Below are positions 14,081 to 58,067 of a stretch of 64,000 nucleotides of DNA, one piece after another; the first letter of the stretch is position 1; each line of letters opens with the position of its first letter. The stretch is taken from assembly GCA_963578775.1 (NCBI GenBank), contig CAUZEG010000003.1, forward strand, positions 10,057 through 74,056, written 5' to 3'. The notes under the pieces were generated by a model. It made no database searches, was not told where the DNA came from, and worked only from the letters and a program-made list of their open reading frames with translations. Origin of the DNA: Myxococcales bacterium (lineage in GTDB: Bacteria > Myxococcota_A > UBA9042 > UBA3505). The position numbers were made by a program, and so were the translations under genes.

Positions 14081-15727
14081 ATGAAGACGGTTCTTGCACG
14101 AATATCGGGTATGGGACTGGGAGCAATCCTGGTCCTGATGGCGATGGCTACGGCTGGCCCCGCACGGGCGGGAGACCTGGATGTGACCAAGCTACGTCCT
14201 TCACCCCATCTATATGATGTTATGACCGTGAAGTTCATGGACTTTCCCTCCACGCTCTCCGGTGGGGGAGGAGTGTTCATCCATTACGGTCAGAATCAGC
14301 TGGTCTATTTGACCCCGGACGGCCCGCAGGCGGTGGTCAAGAATCGGGTCACAGCCAACTTCTATGGCAGCCTGGCGTTCGCGGAACGTTTTTCGGTCGG
14401 ATTGATGATTCCCGGAGTCTTTCTGAATGAAGGTGAAGAGGGCTTTGCCGTACCGATCGATTCGGGGGCTGGCATTGGCGACATCGGTTTATCCCTGAAG
14501 GGAGCACTTCTCAAAAGAGGAAGAAAAGGGTTTGGGCTTGGACTGGCCCTGGACGCAAAATTTGCCACGGGACGGGCACGTGCACATCTGAGTGACGGGG
14601 GGAATGTAGTCTTGGCCTCGCTGGTCGCTGACACCGCCTTTCATGGCTATCGAGCGGCGCTAAACATTGGCTACCTTATGCGCGATACCTTTGAAGAAGA
14701 GGATGGGCTCTTTACGGTGGATGATGAATTCGACATTCGGTTCGCTTTCGAGGCGCCGCTGGTAAAGAACGAGATCTCGCTCTTTGGCCACATTGCAACC
14801 ACAACGAATGCATCGTCCTTCTACGACGACCCCAATACGACGTATTTTGAGGTCGACGGTGGAATGGTTTATCACCATTCTTCCGGCATGCGAGCGCTGG
14901 TCGGTGGCGGTGGAGGGCTTGCCAAGGGTTATGGCAATGTTCGAGTCCGAGCCTTTTTTGGACTTGCATATTACCCATCATTGCGGCCGCCCGATTCCGA
15001 TTCCGATGGGATCCTGGATGCTGTCGACCAATGTCCCAATCGAGCAGAGGACATGGATCAATACGAGGATCACGATGGCTGTCCTGAACCGGATAATGAT
15101 GGCGATTCGATCCTGGATGCGGCCGATAAATGCCCGGTGGATCCAGAGGATGTGGATGGCTTCAAGGACGAGGATGGCTGTCCTGAGTTTGACAATGATT
15201 CCGACGGGTTGACTGACAAAAACGACCTATGCCCGGATGAGGCCGAGGACTTCGACCAATTTGAGGACAGTGATGGCTGTCCAGATGAAGACAACGACGA
15301 AGACGGGATTCCAGACGACAAAGATGCGTGTCCTTTGGAACCCGAAAACAAGAATGACCATAAGGATGAAGACGGCTGTCCCGACGAGGCACCGTTGGCG
15401 GAATTTCTGAATGGTGATCTTGTCGTTCGGGGACAGATTGTTTTCCGTGGTGGAACGGCCAAATTGGACCGTTCTTGTCGTCCTGTGCTGGACACGATTG
15501 CCGCCGTGCTGAAGGCAACACCAAACATAACGCAGGTGGAAATTCTGGTAACAACGGGTGATGAGGTTGTCGCGCGGCGAGCCTCTCGGCGTAGTGCAAG
15601 TCGAGCACGTAAGATTGCCGATTATCTGATCCGAAAAGGGGTTCCCCGTGGCCAACTGGTGACGAAGGGTGGCGGAGCCGGAGAGTCGGCTAAGGTTGCG
15701 TTTAAAGTGCTGGGTCCCGCGGAGTAA
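14081..15727 (+). CDS. OmpA-family outer-membrane protein with thrombospondin type-3 (TSP3) repeats
   Basis: Signal peptide 'MKTVLARISGMGLGAILVLMAMATAGPARA'. At least 8 Asp-rich 'DxDxDGxxDxxDxCP' repeats. C-terminal OmpA/peptidoglycan-binding domain. An alternative upstream start lies at 14057. Confidence 0.8.
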   Translation: MKTVLARISGMGLGAILVLMAMATAGPARAGDLDVTKLRPSPHLYDVMTVKFMDFPSTLSGGGGVFIHYGQNQLVYLTPDGPQAVVKNRVTANFYGSLAFAERFSVGLMIPGVFLNEGEEGFAVPIDSGAGIGDIGLSLKGALLKRGRKGFGLGLALDAKFATGRARAHLSDGGNVVLASLVADTAFHGYRAALNIGYLMRDTFEEEDGLFTVDDEFDIRFAFEAPLVKNEISLFGHIATTTNASSFYDDPNTTYFEVDGGMVYHHSSGMRALVGGGGGLAKGYGNVRVRAFFGLAYYPSLRPPDSDSDGILDAVDQCPNRAEDMDQYEDHDGCPEPDNDGDSILDAADKCPVDPEDVDGFKDEDGCPEFDNDSDGLTDKNDLCPDEAEDFDQFEDSDGCPDEDNDEDGIPDDKDACPLEPENKNDHKDEDGCPDEAPLAEFLNGDLVVRGQIVFRGGTAKLDRSCRPVLDTIAAVLKATPNITQVEILVTTGDEVVARRASRRSASRARKIADYLIRKGVPRGQLVTKGGGAGESAKVAFKVLGPAE

Positions 15728-15832
15728 TCGACATTGGAGAACCCGGGTGTTGAGCCAGTTCTTGAGTAATTCGAGATGGGTGGTTAGTGTGCGAGCCTGA
15801 CAGCCAGGTTCGAACCCTTGCGCGAGGCGCCA

Positions 15833-17140
15833 ATGGAAGAGTACCAACTGACACGTTCTGAGGCCGCATTTATTCGAGCGAAGGAATGCTTCCCAGGGGG
15901 CGTCAACAGTCCGGTTCGAGCCCTTGGGTCGGTTGGAGGAACGCCGTTTTTTACGGTTCGGGGGCAGGGGGCAGAGATCCATGATGCGGACGGGCATGCC
16001 TACGTTGATCTTGTATTAGCCTATGGACCGCTCATCCTCGGCCATGGGCACCCGCGTGTAGCCGATGCGCTTCATGAAGCGGTGGAAGATGGATGGTCGT
16101 ACGGGACACCGACACTGATAGAAACGAATCTGGCAGACCGCGTTCGGCATTTTGTTCCGTCTATGGAGAAGATGCGCTTCGTGAACAGCGGCACAGAGGC
16201 GACCATGACGGCGATACGGCTCGCCCGGGGAGCCACAGGACGAGATCTAACGGTAAAATTCGAGGGTTGTTATCACGGACATGTGGATTCTCTGCTCGTA
16301 AAAGCCGGGTCCGGTGCGCTGACTCATGGGCATCCCGACAGTGGAGGCGTGCCTGCGTCGATAGCTGGAACAACATTATTGGCCCCCTTCAATGATCTGG
16401 AAGCTGTCGAGGCCCTGTTTGGACGCTATGGCGAACAAATTGCGAGTATCATTCTGGAACCGGTGGCTGGGAATATGGGGGTTATCCCCCCCCTTCCAGG
16501 CTTTTTGGAAGGGTTGCGAGCCCTATGTGATGAGCACAAATCGCTCTTGATCTTTGATGAAGTTATGACGGGATTCCGAGTCCACCGGGGCGGAGCCCAG
16601 GCCCTATATGGGGTGTTGCCCGACCTTACCTGTCTGGGAAAGGTCATCGGTGGCGGGCTTCCGGTAGGGGCCTTTGGTGGTCGGGCTGAGATCATGGACT
16701 GTCTAGCGCCGGAGGGCTCCGTCTACCAGGCCGGCACATTAAGTGGAAATCCGCTCTCGATGGTGGCGGGCTGTGCAACCCTGGAGGTCTTGGAAGATAC
16801 GCCTGTATTTGACCGCCTGGAGGAACGGGCTGCGCTATTGGCTGAGGGCTTGCAGACGGTTGCGGACGAGGATGGGATTGAAATGTGTGTCCAACAGGTC
16901 GGCACTATGCTTACGCCTTTCTTCCGTGCTGGGCCGATCCACCGACTTGATGACGTACGCGGATCGAATTTTGAACGATTTGCCCAGTTCTTTCACGGTA
17001 TGCGCCGGGAAGGCGTTAGCATTCCCCCCTCCCAATATGAAGCGTGGTTCTTGGCTACGACCCATGATTCATCGATCTGTGATCGGGTTGTTGCCGCCGC
17101 CCGAACGGTTATGGCAACCGACATAACTGCTGGCAGTTGA
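15833..17140 (+). CDS. hemL: Glutamate-1-semialdehyde 2,1-aminomutase
   Basis: 'FPGGVNSPVRA' near the N-terminus. 'MTGFRV...GKVIGGGLPVGAFGG' around the PLP-lysine region. The ATG at 15833 is preferred over the TTG at 15818. Confidence 0.9.
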   Translation: MEEYQLTRSEAAFIRAKECFPGGVNSPVRALGSVGGTPFFTVRGQGAEIHDADGHAYVDLVLAYGPLILGHGHPRVADALHEAVEDGWSYGTPTLIETNLADRVRHFVPSMEKMRFVNSGTEATMTAIRLARGATGRDLTVKFEGCYHGHVDSLLVKAGSGALTHGHPDSGGVPASIAGTTLLAPFNDLEAVEALFGRYGEQIASIILEPVAGNMGVIPPLPGFLEGLRALCDEHKSLLIFDEVMTGFRVHRGGAQALYGVLPDLTCLGKVIGGGLPVGAFGGRAEIMDCLAPEGSVYQAGTLSGNPLSMVAGCATLEVLEDTPVFDRLEERAALLAEGLQTVADEDGIEMCVQQVGTMLTPFFRAGPIHRLDDVRGSNFERFAQFFHGMRREGVSIPPSQYEAWFLATTHDSSICDRVVAAARTVMATDITAGS

Positions 17141-29794: not shown

Positions 29795-30616
29795 TTGAAA
29801 ACAGGCTTTCTGGACAGCGCGGTCGGGCCACGACTCTTCTACCGGGCTGGTTTCGTCGATTCGGCCGATGCCGCCGTAATCCTCATTCATGGCTTCGGGG
29901 AGCATAGCGGGCGATATGGCTATCTGGCGGACAGTCTGCATGAGGCCGGTGTTGCCACCTTCGGGATCGATCTTCGAGGGCATGGCCAGTCGGAAGGACC
30001 ACGAGGCCATGTCGATGACTTTGATGACTTCAGCGACGATATCAGTTGCGCTTGTACAGTGGTGCAGGAGCGACTTCCCGGTGTGCCCGTTTTTTTGATG
30101 GGCCATAGCATGGGAGGATTGGCGGTCTCGGCTTTCGTTGCCCGGCACCCGGAGGCGATCTCAGGATGTATCCTGTCCTCTCCGGTGTTTGGACTTGGGG
30201 AGGAGACCTCCTGGCCAAAGATGCTCGCTGTGCGAATGCTCGATCGATGGGCTCCCTCTATGACTCTACCCGCAGGTTTCTCGTCCTACGATCTCAGCCA
30301 TGATGTTGCACAGGTCGCGGCCTATGCAAATGATCCCCTTGTACTGCGGCGAGGTTCGGTCCGCTTGTTCAACGAGGCGGTACGGACCCAGAAGTGGATT
30401 CTCGACCAGGCGCCCGATATAGGGCTTCCACTACTGATTCTAGCGGGCGCGGATGACCGGCTTGCTGATCTCGGCACCACCCGGGACTTCATGGCCCGCT
30501 ACGGTGGTCAGGACAAGGTCTTGCAGGTATTCGATGGCTATCGCCACGAAGTCTTCAATGAACGAGAACGCGACGTACCTATCGGCTGCATGATCGATTG
30601 GCTTCGAAAGCACTGA
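29795..30616 (+). CDS. Alpha/beta-hydrolase (lysophospholipase / monoacylglycerol-lipase-like)
   Basis: 'VILIHGFGEHSGRY', nucleophile elbow 'GHSMGG'. 273 aa. Confidence 0.75.
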   Translation: MKTGFLDSAVGPRLFYRAGFVDSADAAVILIHGFGEHSGRYGYLADSLHEAGVATFGIDLRGHGQSEGPRGHVDDFDDFSDDISCACTVVQERLPGVPVFLMGHSMGGLAVSAFVARHPEAISGCILSSPVFGLGEETSWPKMLAVRMLDRWAPSMTLPAGFSSYDLSHDVAQVAAYANDPLVLRRGSVRLFNEAVRTQKWILDQAPDIGLPLLILAGADDRLADLGTTRDFMARYGGQDKVLQVFDGYRHEVFNERERDVPIGCMIDWLRKH

Positions 30617-30697: not shown

Positions 30698-31294
30698 ATG
30701 CAGAGCAGCACGCGAAAAGAACGGACCCAATTTCGGCAACGTCAGATCCTTGATGCGGCCGTGGCGGCCTTTGCCGAGAAGGGATTCTATAAGACCCGTG
30801 TCTCCGAGATCGCTCGCCGGGCTGGGGTAGCGGATGGGACGATCTATCTCTACTTCAAGTCCAAAGACGATATTCTGATTTCGTTGTTTGAAGTACGGAT
30901 GGAAGAAGTCCTGAAGGTCATTCACGACGCTCTTTTGGACTGTACGGATGCAGAGCAACGAATTCACGAGTTTTTTCGGCTCTATATGTCCATCATCGAC
31001 CGAGATCCAGCTCTGGCCGAGGTTATTACCATCGAGCTGAGACAATCGGACAAGTTCATTCGAGAGTATGAGAATCCCAAATTTAAAGAACTTCTCCGCT
31101 ATCTGGCGTCTATAATTGGGGATGGTCAACGCCAGGGGGTCTTCCGTTCGGAAGTTGATCCCAGGCTTACGGCCCGAGCAATATTCGGTGCTCTCGACGA
31201 GTTGACCCTGGCCGGGCTTTTTGCCAAACGGCCGATAGAATCATCGCGAGTGGCCCGTTCTCTGAGTGATCTCTTTGTTCAAGGGTTGAGCTAG
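30698..31294 (+). CDS. TetR-family regulator, likely FadR-like repressor of fatty-acid degradation
   Basis: HTH 'ILDAAVAAFAEKGFYKTRVSEIARRAGVADGTIYLYFKSKDDIL'. Immediately upstream of etfB-etfA. Confidence 0.8.
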   Translation: MQSSTRKERTQFRQRQILDAAVAAFAEKGFYKTRVSEIARRAGVADGTIYLYFKSKDDILISLFEVRMEEVLKVIHDALLDCTDAEQRIHEFFRLYMSIIDRDPALAEVITIELRQSDKFIREYENPKFKELLRYLASIIGDGQRQGVFRSEVDPRLTARAIFGALDELTLAGLFAKRPIESSRVARSLSDLFVQGLS

Positions 31295-31338: not shown

Positions 31339-32086
31339 GTGAAAATATTGGTTGCAGTGAAACGCGTGACGGACCCGGATGCACGCATTCGTCTGAACGC
31401 GGATGCCACCGGCATCGATATGACCGGGGTTGAATATAAGGTGAACCCATTCTGTGAGAACGCGGTGGAAGGAGCACTTCAGATCCGTGAAGCTGCCGGT
31501 GGCGAGGTCGTTGTTGTCTCCATCGGTCCCGATGCGGTCGACACCTATATTCGGACCGGACTGGCCATGGGAGGCGATCGCGGTATTCGTGTTCCGGTTG
31601 ATGACGAGGACCTCGACTCCGATGTAGTGGCCCGGATCCTGGCGGCGATCGTCGAAAGGGAAGAACCAGAACTTGTGCTTGTAGGAAAGCAGGCTATCGA
31701 TGGAGATAACAACCAGGTGGGTCAGCTGTTGGCTGGCTATCTTGGTTGGCCACAGGCCTGTTTCGCCAGTGAAGTCACCTTGTCTGATGACCAGCAAAGT
31801 GTGGAAGTTACGCGCGAAGTGGATGGTGGTCTTGGAAATTGGTTTGCCCGCAGTGATCTCCGCCGATCTTCGCCTCAATGAGCCACGATACGCGTCTCTG
31901 CCAGGGATCATGAAAGCCAAACGCAAGACGATCGATGTTTTTGAGCCCGCCGATCTGGGCGTAGACACCACCGTCAAGGTACGAGTCTTGAAGCTGGAGA
32001 GCCCGCCAGACCGCGCGGCCGGTATCAAGGTGGAGTCGGTAGACGATCTCCTGGGAAAACTACGGAACGAGGCGAAGGCTCTTTGA
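31339..32086 (+). CDS. etfB: Electron transfer flavoprotein beta subunit, interrupted by an apparent +1 frameshift near 31834
   Basis: Frame A (31339-31881) matches the EtfB N-terminus up to '[11 protein letters not shown]'. Frame B (to 32086) continues with '[28 protein letters not shown]...', which is canonical EtfB. The extra base falls within 'cttggaaatt'. Confidence 0.8.
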
Positions 32087-32114: not shown

Positions 32115-33080
32115 ATGGCAAATGTTTTAGTCATCGCAGAGACATACGACGGGCAACTTCGAAACGCCACATACAGTTCGGTCTCTTTTGCGCGCCAGAT
32201 CGTGGAACTCGAGGGTGGCAGTTATTCCATTGTTGTGCTTGGTAGTTCGGCGGCCGAATACGCCTCGTCACTGGCGGCGTATGGTGGTTCCCAGGTGTAT
32301 ACCATCAGTCATGCATCACTGGAACACTACGCGGCTGATAGCTGGTCCGATGCCGTATCGGCTCTGGCCCGGAGTATGGGGGCCAGCCATCTGGTTATGT
32401 CATCCAGCACCCAGGGCAAGGACCTGATGCCGCGAGTCGCATCGCAGTTGGATGCGGGTATGGCGGCGGACATCATTGCAGTCCATGCGGATGGTGGAGC
32501 AACCCATTATAAACGACCCATGTGGGCGGGAAATATCATCGCAACCGTAGCCGTCGACACACCGGTTCATGTGGTTACCGTCCGTACGACGGATTTCGAC
32601 GAAGCAGCTTCTGTCGGTTCGAATAGTGAAGTGCAGCCCTATGATTGGTCCCCAGCGGGAACCTCGAGAACCCGTTTTGTCGCATTCAACGCGAGTGGTG
32701 GCGAACGACCGGATCTGGGGGAAGCGCAGATCGTGGTGTCCGGGGGACGAGGCCTGAAGGACAAAGAAAACTTCTGGAGTGTAGTTACCCCGTTGGCCGA
32801 TTCTCTAGGAGCCGCCATCGGTGCGACTCGGGCGGCCGTGGATTCAGGCTTTGCTCCGAACGATCTTCAGGTGGGTCAGACCGGCCGGGTTGTGGCACCA
32901 GATCTCTATTTCGCGGTCGCGATCAGCGGGGCCATTCAGCATCTGGCGGGTATGAAGAACTCCAAATGTATCGTCGCGATCAACAAAGATCCCGATGCTC
33001 CCATCTTCCAGGTCGCCGATTATGGTCTGGTTGCCGATGCCTTCAAGGCCGTTCCCGAACTGGTAGAAAAGCTGGGCTGA
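32115..33080 (+). CDS. etfA: Electron transfer flavoprotein alpha subunit
   Basis: RBS AAGGAG. FAD-binding C-terminal motif 'GAIQHLAGMKNSKCIVAINKDPDAPIF'. Confidence 0.9.
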   Translation: MANVLVIAETYDGQLRNATYSSVSFARQIVELEGGSYSIVVLGSSAAEYASSLAAYGGSQVYTISHASLEHYAADSWSDAVSALARSMGASHLVMSSSTQGKDLMPRVASQLDAGMAADIIAVHADGGATHYKRPMWAGNIIATVAVDTPVHVVTVRTTDFDEAASVGSNSEVQPYDWSPAGTSRTRFVAFNASGGERPDLGEAQIVVSGGRGLKDKENFWSVVTPLADSLGAAIGATRAAVDSGFAPNDLQVGQTGRVVAPDLYFAVAISGAIQHLAGMKNSKCIVAINKDPDAPIFQVADYGLVADAFKAVPELVEKLG

Positions 33081-33897
33081 GGGCCCGTCTTCGAACTATC
33101 AGAGCGAGACCAGCTAAGAGGATAATCAGGCTGCCGGAGGACCCGGACTTCGAACCGGCGCGACAGCCTCCATTATTCGATCCCCCAGCTATATCCGTTC
33201 CGCCAGCCAGATCTTCGGAGGCGGGAATGTCCGGGAATGGCGTATACAGATCGCAAACGCCGAGGATATCGTCCTCTTCCAGGCTCCTCTTTTTCGACTC
33301 TCCGTCCGGTGCGACCGCAAACATAGTGGCGTGGGGGTCCACGCTGTGATCCAGTCCCAGCAGATGGCCTACCTCGTGGGTGAGAGTGTTCAGAAGGTCA
33401 ATCCCATCGGGAGGCACGGGATCCACCACCGAAAAACTGAACTTCCAGTTATTCAATGAGATATCGGTGTCCACGATCCGGCCCGATGTACGTTTATAGC
33501 TCAGGGTGGTCATAGCCAGGACTATATTGGAGTAGCCCTGTGCGGCCCAGACATCGGAATCCGTAATCGGTACGACCAGGTTCTCGTTATTACCACCCGA
33601 GAGGAACCCTCCGACCTCGGTGTCCGAGGTGCCGGTGTATACAAGGGTGGGCAACGCACACTCGGAAATGGCGTTCCAGGCGTCAAGGGCTTGTTCGGTA
33701 CTATCGATAAGGTCTTCAGTGGCAAGGTTAGAGGTTACCGCGGTAGAAACGTAAATCCGAACGGTCTCTGCGAACCAACGGAGCGGCTCATCATTCTTGT
33801 CCGATGTATAGAAGACGTAGCCCGACGCTGATCGTACTGAAATGATCAGCAGGAGCAGCGACAGCAAGAGGTAGGTAGTTCGAGAGTTACGGGCCAT
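33043..33897 (-). CDS. Secreted metzincin-type zinc metallopeptidase with MYXO-CTERM-like C-terminal anchor
   Basis: Signal peptide. 'HEVGHLLGLDHS' (HExxHxxGxxH) plus Met-turn 'ATMF'. C-terminus 'GGCRAGSKSGSSGSLIILLAGLALIVRRR'. Confidence 0.7.
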   Translation of the reverse strand: MARNSRTTYLLLSLLLLIISVRSASGYVFYTSDKNDEPLRWFAETVRIYVSTAVTSNLATEDLIDSTEQALDAWNAISECALPTLVYTGTSDTEVGGFLSGGNNENLVVPITDSDVWAAQGYSNIVLAMTTLSYKRTSGRIVDTDISLNNWKFSFSVVDPVPPDGIDLLNTLTHEVGHLLGLDHSVDPHATMFAVAPDGESKKRSLEEDDILGVCDLYTPFPDIPASEDLAGGTDIAGGSNNGGCRAGSKSGSSGSLIILLAGLALIVRRRALSPAFLPVRERP

Positions 33898-36629: not shown

Positions 36630-37250
36630 TTAGTTTTCCGCCGCTGGGCTGAGTGTTTTTTCGATGAACGCATTGGAGAAACGAACTCCATTGAGGCGCA
36701 CACAAATGTGAATCGAAGTTCGGTTGAAACCTTTGTCCTTCAACACCTTTACAAAGCCTTCGGCGGTCTCATCGTCGATGGACTCTACCTTCTCCACATC
36801 GGGATCGATGGTTTCGACCAGCTCTCGAACGGCTGAATACACACTGCTATGGGCCTTATTCCATAACAGGGTGAGCAGCTGCATGACCCGTACGTTCTCT
36901 TTCTCCCTGACCTCGGGCAAAAGGATGCGGACAAGGCGTCCGCGACCGATTTTATCGAGGCGGAAACCACGGAAATAGCGCTGGAAGACGATCGGATCCA
37001 CGCGCCGCATATTATCGATAACATGGGCGGGTTTCAGGCTGCGGATCAAGGCCTCCAGATCCGAAGAGAGAGCTGTATATGTTTCGGTCAGCTCGACAAT
37101 CTCTTTTTCCATCTGCTCTTCTTCTGACGGCTCGTCTATGACTTTGTCGGACGAATTTTCGGCCGCCGTCTCTTCATCGAGAGGCTTGTCTGTGACTTTG
37201 TCGGACGAATTTTCGGCCGCCGTCTCTTCATCGAGAGGCTTGTCTGTCAT
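36630..37250 (-). CDS. Hypothetical acidic protein with an N-terminal 18-aa tandem duplication
   Basis: RBS AGGAG. 'TDKPLDEETAAENSSDKV' x2 encoded by a perfect 54-bp direct repeat. Remainder unrecognised. Confidence 0.45.
   Translation of the reverse strand: MTDKPLDEETAAENSSDKVTDKPLDEETAAENSSDKVIDEPSEEEQMEKEIVELTETYTALSSDLEALIRSLKPAHVIDNMRRVDPIVFQRYFRGFRLDKIGRGRLVRILLPEVREKENVRVMQLLTLLWNKAHSSVYSAVRELVETIDPDVEKVESIDDETAEGFVKVLKDKGFNRTSIHICVRLNGVRFSNAFIEKTLSPAAEN
37141..37248. repeat. Perfect 54-bp tandem direct repeat (2 copies) within the CDS
   Basis: Read directly: 37141-37194 is identical to 37195-37248. Confidence 0.9.
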
Positions 37251-43273: not shown

Positions 43274-44440
43274 TTACTGCACCATTTCAAAGATGGCGGC
43301 CGCTCCCATTCCCCCGCCGATACACATCGAAACGATTCCGTATCGTCCGTTTCGACGTTTGAGTTCGTGGAGGAGGGTTGCGGTCAACTTAGAGCCGGTT
43401 GCCCCCAGCGGATGTCCCAGGGCGATGGCACCGCCATTTACATTGACCCGGTCCGGATCGAGATGCAGTTCGCGGATACAGGCGATGGCCTGGGCGGCAA
43501 AGGCCTCGTTCAGTTCAATCAGATCGATGTCCTCGAGCTTAAGGCCCGCTTTCTCACAGGCCTTGGGGATCGCCGCGATCGGGCCGATGCCCATGATCTC
43601 CGGAGCGACGCCTTCCACCTGGAATGTCAATAGCCGGGCCATAGGCGTACAACCTGTCTTCTCAAGGCCCGCTTCACTCATTAGAACGACGGCCGCGGCC
43701 CCATCGGTGAGGGGGCTGGAGTTGCCCGGAGTCACGGTCCCACGGACCGAAAAGGAAGGACGGAGCTTGGCAAGAACCTCGAGACTTGTTCCCTCACGAA
43801 TCAGCTCATCCTGGGCCAGGGTACCGGCCTTGCGTTCCCCGTTCTCCGTGAGCTGGTAGTCGATAGGAACAAGTTCATCGCTGAAGCGACCGGCCTTTGT
43901 GGCTGCGACGGCCCGAGCATGGCTCTCCACGGCGAAACTGTCCTGGTCCGTTCGTGAGATCTCGAATTTAGTCGCTACATTCTCGGCCGTGGTGCCCATG
44001 GCGATATAGGCTTCGGGTCGTTCCGTGGCGAGCTCTGGATGACCACTGAAATGAAAGCCGGTCATCGGAACCATCGTCATCGACTCCACTCCACCGGCGA
44101 CCACGATATCATTCCAGCCCGATTGGATGGCCGCAGCCCCCTGGCTGATGGTCTGGACGCCCGATGAGCAGAAGCGATTCACCGTGACCGCCGGAACGCG
44201 GTCGGGGAGCCCGCTATGAAGAGCTGCCAGCCGGGCCAGGTTGAGTCCCTGCGGACCTTCTGGAAAGGCACAGCCCAGAATAAAGTCCTCGATTCCATTC
44301 GGGTCCAGACCGGGCAGAGCCGCTAGATTGCTCTGTACCACGGCTTTGACCATATCTTCCGGGCGCGTCTCCCGGAGTGATCCTTTTTTGGCGCGACCAC
44401 CGGGGGTTCTCTTGGCACTAACAACGTACGCGTGGGACAT
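43274..44440 (-). CDS. fadA: Acetyl-CoA C-acyltransferase (3-ketoacyl-CoA thiolase)
   Basis: Active-site Cys 'NRFCSSGVQ'. C-terminal 'GNSSPLTDGAAA' and 'CIGGGMGAA'. Confidence 0.9.
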   Translation of the reverse strand: MSHAYVVSAKRTPGGRAKKGSLRETRPEDMVKAVVQSNLAALPGLDPNGIEDFILGCAFPEGPQGLNLARLAALHSGLPDRVPAVTVNRFCSSGVQTISQGAAAIQSGWNDIVVAGGVESMTMVPMTGFHFSGHPELATERPEAYIAMGTTAENVATKFEISRTDQDSFAVESHARAVAATKAGRFSDELVPIDYQLTENGERKAGTLAQDELIREGTSLEVLAKLRPSFSVRGTVTPGNSSPLTDGAAAVVLMSEAGLEKTGCTPMARLLTFQVEGVAPEIMGIGPIAAIPKACEKAGLKLEDIDLIELNEAFAAQAIACIRELHLDPDRVNVNGGAIALGHPLGATGSKLTATLLHELKRRNGRYGIVSMCIGGGMGAAAIFEMVQ

Positions 44441-44481: not shown

Positions 44482-46863
44482 TCAGTTCCGAAGGGGTTTT
44501 CCCTTCATCAACATATGCTCCATTCGCGCCTGGGATTTTTCTTCGCCCAGGAGGGAGAGGAAATTGGCGCGTTCCAGTTCCAGAATATGGTCTTCACTGA
44601 CCTGTGTTCCAGGGGCGACATCTCCCCCACAAAGAACTTCCGCGAGCTTGTTTCCGATCAGCGCATCGTGTTCGCTGATGTAGCCGGACCAGACCATTCC
44701 CTGTATGCCCACCGCGAGGTTGGCGATACCTTCGCGGCCCGGCAACTGAAGTACCGGATCCGGCGATGGTGAATAGCCGGATTTGGCCATACCGATCACC
44801 CTGGCTTTGGCGTGGGACGTAAGATCCATACGGTTCATGGTGATGCCATCCGTGCGACGCATATAGCCGTAGTCGCGCCCTTCGGCGGCACTTTCGGCTA
44901 CCTTGGCCATGCCGATGGCTTCGAAGGCCCTTTGAACATAGGGGAAGGGATCGGCCGTGTTGGGCGCATTTTCCAGAAGGCGAACGAGCACTTCTTTGCA
45001 TCCACCGCCACCGGGGATGAGTCCCACCCCTACCTCTACCAGGCCGTGATAGCATTCAATATGGGCCTGGACCGCATCGGCGCCCAGGCATACTTCGAGA
45101 CCGCCACCCAGGGTTAATCCTTTGGGGGCCGCTACAACCGGTACGGGGGCTTGGCGAAGGGCGAGGTTGGCTTGCTGGAAGTTCCGAATCATGTCTTCCA
45201 ACTGACCCCATTGTTGGCCGCGCGCGCCCATGAGGATGAGCAGCAGATTGGCTCCAACCGAGAAATTCTCGTCGTCGTTCGAGATCACCAGTCCGACGCC
45301 ATCGCGGATAGCGCGATCCACAGCCAGCCCCAGGGTTTTGATGATACTGTCATCGACGGCGTTCATCTTGGAATGGAATTCCAGACCAAAAACCCCGTCG
45401 TCGAGATCGAGGATGGAGGCCGATGTTTCTTTATGGACGAGCTTTCCGTTTCGATGAATGTTGCGCAGGACAATGGCCCCGGGTGACACTTCCGATGGCT
45501 GTCCTGGTTGTAGGCTCGCGGGATCAAGAACGGACTCCTGTCCGTTATCCGCCTGGCTGTAGAAGGAGCCGGGGCCGGCCGCTACCCGGGTCAACAGGTC
45601 CGGCACGTCCACGCCCTCGGCGTTCATCCACTCGATGACCTTATCTACCCCCAGAACGTCGATGGCCTGAAACGGACCGAGATCCCAGTTGAAACCCCAG
45701 CGCATGGCCCGATCGACATCTTCGAAGCGGTCGGCAATTTCGGGGACCAGCCCGGCGGCATAACTCAGGGAGGGTAGAACGAGCTTACGGGCGATCTCGC
45801 CTCCACGATCCTCGGCTGAAAGCATCATAGAGAGACGTTTTCCCGCGTCTTCGACCTTGCGCACACTGCCCGTCGAGTCGAAACGGATCTTCTCCTTGGG
45901 GCCGTACTCCATGGTGTTGATATCCAGGGCCAGGATCTCCGTGCGTCCATCGATTTTGGTCTTTTTGTAGAAGCCCTGACCACCTTTGGAGCCGATCCAG
46001 CCGCTTTCGAGCATTGTCTGGATGTAGTTGGGAACCGAAAAACTGTCTCGCATAGGATCATGGGTCAGGGCTGCATGGCAGTTGTTCATGACGTGCACCA
46101 GAGTATCCAGTCCCACTACGTCGGCGGTCCGGAAGGCTGCACTCTTCGGACGCCCGGTGGGCTGGCCCGCGACGGCGTCGATCTCGGCGACACTGTATCC
46201 AGACTCCAGCATTTTTAAAGCGACAGCCATCCCGAAGACGCCGATCCGATTGGCGATGAAACTCGGGGTATCTTTCGCCCGGACGATCCCCTTACCGAGG
46301 CGGTCCTGACAGAATGTTGCGATACCTTCGACCAGCGAGATATTCGACTCCGGGCCGGGTACGACCTCCAGGAGCCGAAGGTAGCGAGGCGGATTGAAGA
46401 AGTGGGTTATGAAGAAGCGAGACTTCTGGTCCGCCGACATATCCTGCGTAAGTTCATCCAGAGGAATGCCGCTGGTATTGCTTGTGAGCGCCGCATGAGG
46501 AGCCAGATGGGGCGTGATGCGGGCATATAGATTCCTCTTGATGTCGAGGTTTTCGATAATGGCCTCAATGACCCAGTCCGCCTCCGACAGCCGTTCCAGA
46601 TGGTCTTCGAGATTTCCGGCCTGGATCAGGGCCGCCCGATCGGGGTGCATAAATGGCTTTGGCTTATGTTTCAGAGCTTTCGCGATGGCCCCCAGAGCCA
46701 GGGCATTTCGTGCCGACGGATCCGCCGGAAGATTTCCGCTTTTATCTTTGGGGACGATATCGAGCAGATGGACCCGAACACCGGCGTTGGCGAGATGTGC
46801 CGCGATACCGGTTCCCATGACACCGGCCCCGATTACGGCCGCCGTACGCACAGACTTTGTCAT
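44482..46863 (-). CDS. fadN: Multifunctional fatty-acid oxidation protein: N-terminal 3-hydroxyacyl-CoA dehydrogenase plus C-terminal enoyl-CoA hydratase (FadN-type order)
   Basis: Rossmann 'AAVIGAGVMGTGIAAHLANAG' at the N-terminus. Crotonase fold in the C-terminal third. 793 aa. Confidence 0.85.
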   Translation of the reverse strand: MTKSVRTAAVIGAGVMGTGIAAHLANAGVRVHLLDIVPKDKSGNLPADPSARNALALGAIAKALKHKPKPFMHPDRAALIQAGNLEDHLERLSEADWVIEAIIENLDIKRNLYARITPHLAPHAALTSNTSGIPLDELTQDMSADQKSRFFITHFFNPPRYLRLLEVVPGPESNISLVEGIATFCQDRLGKGIVRAKDTPSFIANRIGVFGMAVALKMLESGYSVAEIDAVAGQPTGRPKSAAFRTADVVGLDTLVHVMNNCHAALTHDPMRDSFSVPNYIQTMLESGWIGSKGGQGFYKKTKIDGRTEILALDINTMEYGPKEKIRFDSTGSVRKVEDAGKRLSMMLSAEDRGGEIARKLVLPSLSYAAGLVPEIADRFEDVDRAMRWGFNWDLGPFQAIDVLGVDKVIEWMNAEGVDVPDLLTRVAAGPGSFYSQADNGQESVLDPASLQPGQPSEVSPGAIVLRNIHRNGKLVHKETSASILDLDDGVFGLEFHSKMNAVDDSIIKTLGLAVDRAIRDGVGLVISNDDENFSVGANLLLILMGARGQQWGQLEDMIRNFQQANLALRQAPVPVVAAPKGLTLGGGLEVCLGADAVQAHIECYHGLVEVGVGLIPGGGGCKEVLVRLLENAPNTADPFPYVQRAFEAIGMAKVAESAAEGRDYGYMRRTDGITMNRMDLTSHAKARVIGMAKSGYSPSPDPVLQLPGREGIANLAVGIQGMVWSGYISEHDALIGNKLAEVLCGGDVAPGTQVSEDHILELERANFLSLLGEEKSQARMEHMLMKGKPLRN

Positions 46864-53982: not shown

Positions 53983-54672
53983 ATGAAACGTAATCTTTTG
54001 AAATATGCCTCTTTCCTATTCGTTCTGTCCGTATGTGTTTTGGCTTTGCCGTCGTTGGCAACAGCCCAGGCGAAGAAGGCCAATCTGCAGCAGCCTTCGA
54101 CCTTCAACGCCACAGCCCCTGATGTCTACCAGGTGAATGTGAACACCACCTCGGGGACCTTTGTTCTGGAAATCAACCGCGCCTGGGCACCTCTCGGGGC
54201 GGATCGTTTCTACAACCTTGTCGTTAGCGGATACTTCACGGATGTTGCCTTCTTTCGGGCTATCAGTGGATTCATGGTGCAGTTTGGAATTCATGGGGAC
54301 CCGGCGGTCTCCAAAGCGTGGCGATCGGCAAAAATACGAGATGATCGGGTGGTGCAGTCCAATATGACCGGCTTTTTGACCTTTGCCACCGCCGGTGAAC
54401 ATACGCGGACGACCCAGATGTTCATCAATTATGCGGACAATATTCGCCTGGATTCGATGGGCTTTGCTCCCATTGGTAAAGTCATCAAGGGAATGGAGCT
54501 CGTCAACTCTCTGTACACGGGCTATGGCGAGGGGGCTCCTAGTGGACGTGGTCCATCCCAGGACCGAATGCAGATGGAGGGGAATGTCTATTTGAAGAAG
54601 GACTTCCCTATGTTGGACTACATCAAATCCATGACCATCGTTAAGTCCAAGAAAGCGTCGAAGAAACGCTGA
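53983..54672 (+). CDS. Periplasmic cyclophilin-type peptidyl-prolyl cis-trans isomerase
   Basis: Signal peptide. 'FYNLVVSGYFTDVAFFRAISGFMVQFG'. Confidence 0.9.
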   Translation: MKRNLLKYASFLFVLSVCVLALPSLATAQAKKANLQQPSTFNATAPDVYQVNVNTTSGTFVLEINRAWAPLGADRFYNLVVSGYFTDVAFFRAISGFMVQFGIHGDPAVSKAWRSAKIRDDRVVQSNMTGFLTFATAGEHTRTTQMFINYADNIRLDSMGFAPIGKVIKGMELVNSLYTGYGEGAPSGRGPSQDRMQMEGNVYLKKDFPMLDYIKSMTIVKSKKASKKR

Positions 54673-57798: not shown

Positions 57799-58067
57799 TT
57801 ACATTCCTGACCATCTTCATGCTGGCAGTCTTTGTCGGCTTCGAGGTCATTACAAAAGTGCCGCCGACCCTGCACACTCCCCTGATGTCCGGGTCCAACG
57901 CCATCTCAGGAATTGCTCTTGTGGGCGCGATACTGGTGAGTGGTGCGGCGGACCCGAATACGGCCACCTGGATTGGGTTGGGTGCGGTGATCTTCGCGAC
58001 TATCAATGTCGTTGGTGGTTTCCTCGTGACCCATCGAATGCTCGACATGTTCAAGAAGAAGGACTGA
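57795..58067 (+). CDS. pntAB: NAD(P) transhydrogenase subunit alpha part 2 (membrane)
   Basis: 90-aa membrane protein 'GFEVITKVPPTLHTPLMSGSNAISGI'. Its ATGA overlaps pntAA. Confidence 0.85.
   Translation: MITFLTIFMLAVFVGFEVITKVPPTLHTPLMSGSNAISGIALVGAILVSGAADPNTATWIGLGAVIFATINVVGGFLVTHRMLDMFKKKD

Follow-up and report, generated by a model that had tools for sequence, protein, structure and literature searches.

An 8-nt deletion confined to one contig splits etfB in a marine Myxococcales sequence

The window (the whole stretch of DNA that was analysed, 64,000 nt) contains etfB, the gene for the ETF beta subunit, in two pieces: a 180-codon open reading frame and a C-terminal part that continues in the +1 frame. 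The gene adjoins its partner gene etfA and follows a gene for a TetR-family regulator (Table 1). The order TetR-etfB-etfA is kept in the loci of all close relatives and is similar to fadR-etfBA of Bacillus subtilis, the regulator in the window being YsiA-like. The exact EtfA protein is present in all three assemblies discussed below. A fadN-like gene (44482-46863, 3HCDH and ECH, 793 aa) and a fadA-like gene (43274-44440, thiolase, 388 aa) are located 10 kb downstream on the opposite strand. The first-pass annotation described etfA and fadNA as intact, and we can confirm this: etfA has both Pfam domains, and the fadN- and fadA-like genes are whole.

Two observations concern the neighbourhood. 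The 3' end of etfA overlaps a convergent gene for an M10-family peptidase (33043-33897, minus strand) by 38 nt (33043-33080), and the overlap is the same in an independent assembly. Four other pairs of open reading frames look like split genes (17561/17994, 19404/19949, 35572/36630 and 40114/40666); in the independent assembly each is annotated in the normal way as a gene of its own, and the pairs were discarded as candidates.

Table 1. Positions of the two etfB fragments, the adjacent genes and the deletion junction in the window
Feature	Positions	Strand	Description	Basis
TetR-family regulator gene, intact	30698..31294	+	YsiA/FadR-like C-terminal domain; directly upstream of etfB	Pfam TetR_N, TetR_C_4
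N-terminal etfB fragment	31339..31881	+	GTG start, 180 codons, TGA at 31879-31881	ORF list, translation, Pfam PF01012
C-terminal etfB fragment	31823..32086	+	+1 frame; annotated as an 87-aa ORF from ATG 31823; stop 32084-32086	
Deletion junction	31828..31830	+	8 nt of the intact allele absent	Pairwise comparison with L004 (the ENA contig k141_484003), enumeration of equivalent placements
etfA (ETF alpha subunit), intact	32115..33080	+	28 nt downstream of the etfB stop	Pfam PF01012, PF00766

The homology of the 180-aa product to EtfB covers residues 1-163, and its final ~16 codons are out-of-frame read-through. Its match to the Pfam ETF domain PF01012 (E=9.5e-32) extends over profile positions 5-139 of 181, up to ...REVDGG. 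The homologous stretch of the C-terminal fragment begins at ~31829 and corresponds, by way of the intact allele described below, to the C-terminal third of human ETF-beta; this fragment alone has no Pfam match, and the two halves joined artificially match PF01012 at profile positions 5-180. Thus the ORF translation and the Pfam match place the frame switch within 31820-31850, as the first-pass annotation had proposed, and the conserved continuation that it had noticed in the +1 frame does run to the stop codon. Everything from LPAV onward is missing from the 180-aa fragment, including a conserved segment that in human ETF would contain the loop for partner recognition and precede the C-terminal arm (1T9G complex).

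Both products are already on record. The 180-aa protein is found in NCBI and JGI/IMG (P0015/P0124) and the exact 87-aa protein as P0127. Both come from one and the same 74,659-bp contig, the only such contig among ~15 billion proteins.

An intact allele is available for comparison. The ENA assembly ERZ27247711 includes a contig of 102,680 bp, k141_484003 (a MEGAHIT-style name), and the whole window was compared with four overlapping stretches of it. Over 64,000 bases the two differ by 16 SNPs and a single indel, which is an 8-nt gap in etfB. The ENA contig codes for an uninterrupted EtfB of 251 aa (P0125), which is identical to both halves of the window protein and, unlike the window copy, covers the full ETF domain in one polypeptide of ~250 aa. 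Apart from the gap, the etfB DNA of the two alleles is identical (748/748 nt). The lesion is thus not how the gene normally looks in this organism, because an independently assembled genome of the same strain has etfB intact.

The substitutions comprise 11 synonymous third-position changes, four non-synonymous changes and one intergenic change. Since 11 of the 15 coding SNPs are synonymous, purifying selection acts on this population. We presume that the window and the ENA assembly are real sister haplotypes of one strain-level population. The absence of any other indel in 64 kb relative to the independent assembly indicates that the window assembly is not indel-prone; an assembly of a generally indel-prone type (long-read or 454) was rejected for this reason, there being no second indel in 64 kb and no N in the window.

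The SNPs are unevenly distributed. Seven of them, all synonymous third-position changes, fall within 72 nt (16534-16606) of a class-III aminotransferase gene (15818-17140), and the remaining nine are scattered through the rest of the window. The cluster has the look of a short tract of recombination or gene conversion, or of a strain-mosaic join. At 30228 (Ala/Val in an S33 hydrolase gene), 4964 and 44680 the base of the window is absent from both other assemblies. At 54157 (Thr/Ala in a peptidyl-prolyl isomerase gene) the ENA contig has the other base, and the exact product of the window is on record nowhere. Two of the three private coding changes are non-synonymous, versus one of four where the Logan assembly described below agrees with the window, numbers that are too small to interpret.

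The deletion itself can be described as follows. The intact allele reads GAT GGT GGG CTT GAG GTC TTG GAA ATT, and the window reads GATGGTGG joined to TCTTGGAAATT, the junction being GATGGTGGTCTTGGAAATT. The octamer GGGCTTGA and, directly after it, GGTCTTGG (6/8 identical) form an imperfect tandem repeat at the site, and exactly one of the two units is gone. The microhomology at the octamer junction is 2 nt (GG); because of it, the missing 8-mer can be placed equally well in three ways (GGGCTTGA, GGCTTGAG or GCTTGAGG), all lying between 31827 and 31830 of the window. As a consequence of the loss, the final 84 codons are in the +1 frame, and the joined reading is three residues short (248 aa versus 251 aa). 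The apparent "GL" that closes the N-terminal part is encoded by GGT CTT; this CTT belongs to the GTC TTG in the second unit of the repeat, so that the ending is partly coincidental. Tandem Repeats Finder reported nothing at the etfB site, even at score 30, and the octamer repeat is not conserved at the DNA level in relatives with 90% protein identity.

The first-pass annotation implied, as one of its options, a one-base indel in the GG/AAA runs of "cttggaaatt". This is not what the alignments reveal: the DNA alignment with the intact allele of the same strain gives a net deletion of 8 nt, the same 8-nt gap is seen against the 90%-identical relatives, and a one-base homopolymer indel is thereby ruled out. 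The protein level agrees with this. The spacing between DGGL and LPAV is six residues in all homologues and three in the joined window reading, which also argues against a one-base indel.

The gene is unbroken in all related genomes retrieved (80/80; GTDB species representatives, single full-length matches). The 120 EtfB homologues listed in the search with the joined protein are all 245-278 aa long, with the exception of the window's own 180-aa fragment P0015; no other truncated EtfB was found among the matches listed in the search with the reconstructed protein. Myxococcales bacterium RS415 (Tara Red Sea), whose protein is 90% identical, is the nearest species; its etfB is intact, and the alignment has a clean 8-nt gap. 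When the intact allele is matched to human ETF-beta (1EFV_B; residues 1-246, E=1e-78), there is no gap across REIDGGLETLRLKLPAV. It resembles the ETF beta subunits of known structure (human ETFB 1EFV_B and Paracoccus 1EFP_B), from which the window copy differs in being split. The comparison with orthologous etfB sequences, which had been suggested as a check, therefore has a clear outcome: the orthologues are single open reading frames and the window copy alone is split. Searches with the gapped junction pattern and an allele-agnostic 41-mer in JGI metagenome contigs gave no match to either allele, and the gapped junction pattern had no match in the GTDB representative genomes.

A third assembly is provided by the Logan contigs of SRR9039920. 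The exact window proteins are on record from one sequencing run and two long contigs only, which suggests that one sample was assembled three times. The Logan contigs break in etfB, the last base of L092 being gene position 492 (...GATGGTGGG) and the first base of L090 position 497 (AGGTCTTGG...). On either side the contig reaches a single base into the intact allele, and the 4 nt in between are unassembled; of the 36 31-mers that only the intact allele has, 34 are absent at the break. Elsewhere in this genome, the overlap between adjoining Logan contigs is 28-33 nt. Breaks occur about once per 5 kb, so that one would fall by chance within 10 nt of the lesion with a probability of ~0.002; hence the etfB site is a true trouble spot in the reads. 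Counting the Logan ends, the intact allele is favoured by two of the three assemblies, and L092 in addition carries the non-window base at the nearby SNP 30228.

Other Logan ends are found near the known SNP 15712 (L006 ends at 15721) and near variant 33392 (L090/L096, 33369-33401). L096 also ends inside a 54-nt tandem repeat at 37129-37247 (2.2 copies, 96% matches), which belongs to a 206-aa open reading frame without Pfam hits (36630-37250, minus strand). A further junction, L095/L094, lies at 57862-57889.

If the etfB break is explained by a second allele in SRR9039920, the boundaries 492/497 mean that this allele is neither a single SNP nor a simple 4-nt deletion. The 8-nt deletion of the window is compatible with these ends but predicts 491 and 498. 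A simple two-allele bubble does not account for the one-base extensions, and neither does either of the two origins of the deletion that are weighed below.

We are nearly certain that the lesion is non-programmed and private to this contig. A programmed +1 ribosomal frameshift, one of the options named in the first-pass annotation, would act near GGU CUU GGA AAU, as in prfB, and yield a functional EtfB of 248 aa. It is true that the two open reading frames overlap, that a shift by +1 at CUU-G would lead back to the conserved C-terminus, and that the CUU, which is the shift codon of prfB, has the G-rich GGUGGU just upstream. The site resembles the CUU UGA C site of prfB (RF2) in the +1 shift needed, the CUU codon and the G-rich upstream bases, but it differs from it in having no in-frame stop or slow A-site codon, no canonical SD spacing and no conservation. 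A genome only 16 SNPs away in 64 kb has the gene in frame and 8 nt longer, the related genomes all have it full-length in a single segment, and the shifted product would lack three residues conserved in all homologues and in 1EFV_B. GGA, the codon that would occupy the A site, is common: it accounts for 25% of the Gly codons (20.8 per thousand), and five in-frame copies of CTT-GGA are present in other genes of the window. The suggested slippery-site check was run and gave no slippery motif: neither a stop nor a rare codon was found at the site, and no X-XXY-YYZ heptamer. No SD-like element (AGGAGG or AGGGGG at ~3-nt spacing) was found upstream of CUU, where GGUGGU directly adjoins the codon, and the 100 nt downstream fold at -21.7 kcal/mol versus a shuffle mean of -26.7 (z = +1.45), i.e., less stably than shuffled sequence. 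With an intact gene in the same strain, unbroken genes in the relatives and no site features, the chance of programmed frameshifting is practically negligible, and this option can be dropped. An established pseudogene of the lineage, with the function dispensable or taken over by a paralogue, is also extremely improbable. The gene is indeed disrupted in the deposited sequence, and both fragments are called as separate genes there; on the other hand, the same strain is intact in ERZ27247711, the Logan contig ends carry bases of the intact allele, and etfB in the window has no secondary decay, i.e., no further indel, stop or substitution. Moreover, etfA, the TetR regulator gene and the fadN- and fadA-like genes are intact, as is etfB of the nearest species RS415. 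The pseudogene option of the first-pass annotation thus fails in its lineage-fixed form, the lesion being private to one contig and the rest of the gene identical; what is left of it is a private or minority null allele.

The choice is therefore between an error of assembly and such an allele, and we prefer the former. We consider it somewhat better than an even bet that the deletion arose in silico, through a local assembly or gap-closing error. The assembly graph would have been interrupted at exactly the etfB site, as it is in the third assembly, and a scaffolding, gap-closing or merging step may then have brought the flanks together with the two similar octamers out of register, so that one unit would be dropped and an 8-nt deletion produced. 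A de Bruijn assembler requires k-mers across a junction, and for this reason a pure in-silico deletion needs such a scaffolding, gap-closing or merging step. A naive overlap of the Logan contig ends does not reproduce the artefact, as the exact overlap is only 2 nt; joining the two octamers in the wrong register (6/8 matches) does reproduce the window junction and presupposes a gap closer that tolerates mismatches. SPAdes-type scaffolders may accept short overlaps at ~70% identity. The error is favoured by the fact that the deleted allele is seen nowhere else while the Logan flanks lie on the intact allele, and by purifying selection, under which a frameshift in a core gene is unexpected. Several features would fit a local assembly error: the number of repeat units is wrong, it is not reproduced by k141_484003, which has both units, and the Logan assembly breaks there. 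Local assembly errors in metagenome scaffolds, including wrong repeat numbers, are described by Chen et al. 2020 (Genome Res 30:315, PMC7111523), with 13 of them in a curated genome of 1.13 Mb, or about one per 90 kb. The window is like those cases, as judged from assembled contigs, in the wrong unit number, the broken gene and the different result of another assembler; its repeat is shorter, with two imperfect 8-nt units. Thus the first-pass idea of an assembly or basecalling indel holds as far as a possible artefact is concerned and does not hold for one extra base in a homopolymer-like run, the lesion being the loss of an 8-nt unit. The competing reading is a real 8-bp loss by replication slippage or a microhomology-mediated event in a sister strain or sub-population, coexisting with the intact allele; we rate it somewhat below an even chance. 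One repeat unit lost with a GG microhomology is the classic anatomy of slippage. There is strain-level variation with the private SNPs at 30228, 4964 and 44680, so the contig could follow a sister haplotype. Polymorphic or repeated sites (15712, 33392, 37129-37247) are where Logan contigs tend to stop, and the etfB site may be another; a break there is equally expected if both alleles coexist in the reads, and the missing 31-mers fit two alleles that share coverage. Against this, no independent assembly has the deleted allele, and the Logan ends extend into the intact one, L092 with its non-window base at 30228, so the deleted allele would be at best a minority in SRR9039920. ETF-beta is unbroken in the related genomes, the mainly synonymous SNPs show purifying selection, and the rest of the gene is without decay. 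Compared with a young pseudogene formed by slipped-strand or microhomology deletion, the window has the loss of one unit, the 2-nt microhomology and a length that is not a multiple of three, leading to a premature stop; it differs from such null alleles in being unfixed, found in one contig only and free of secondary decay. A stronger version, in which both alleles coexist in an uncultured marine Myxococcales population and recurrent slippage at the octamer pair, as a hotspot, turns etfB off and perhaps back on, is very unlikely. If it were true, part of the population would lose ETF-linked fatty-acid oxidation, either reversibly or in a frequency-dependent manner. A phase-variable (contingency) locus was rejected, as the site has only two units, 6/8 identical, instead of several perfect tandem units.

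The gene codes for a canonical ETF beta subunit, and the lesion belongs to one of two known classes, either a short-repeat assembly error or a slippage deletion. The practical point is one of curation: the deposited record splits an ordinary etfB into hypothetical fragments of 180 aa and 87 aa, which are already in the protein databases. A metabolic reconstruction based on this contig would wrongly score ETF, and hence the beta-oxidation linked to acyl-CoA dehydrogenases, as missing. If present in the DNA, the deletion would represent a loss-of-function allele, young and unfixed, of a wild population, a minor population-genetic observation that involves no new mechanism.

Two minor observations on the relatives can be added. 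The loci L001, L002 and L003, from an RS415-like sister species (ENA ERZ976268, GenBank PBVT01000046 and a Tara scaffold), all end 20 nt past the etfB stop, before etfA; the etfB-etfA gap is a recurrent assembly breakpoint in that species. Outside the window, the protein P0122 (278 aa, from an ENA contig of 1,297 bp) has a nearly identical EtfB sequence in its first ~150 residues, fused to the C-terminus of PtsI. It evidently comes from a chimeric short contig, and it pulls the unrelated PtsI fragments P0121 and P0123 into the 90% protein cluster of the truncated EtfB.
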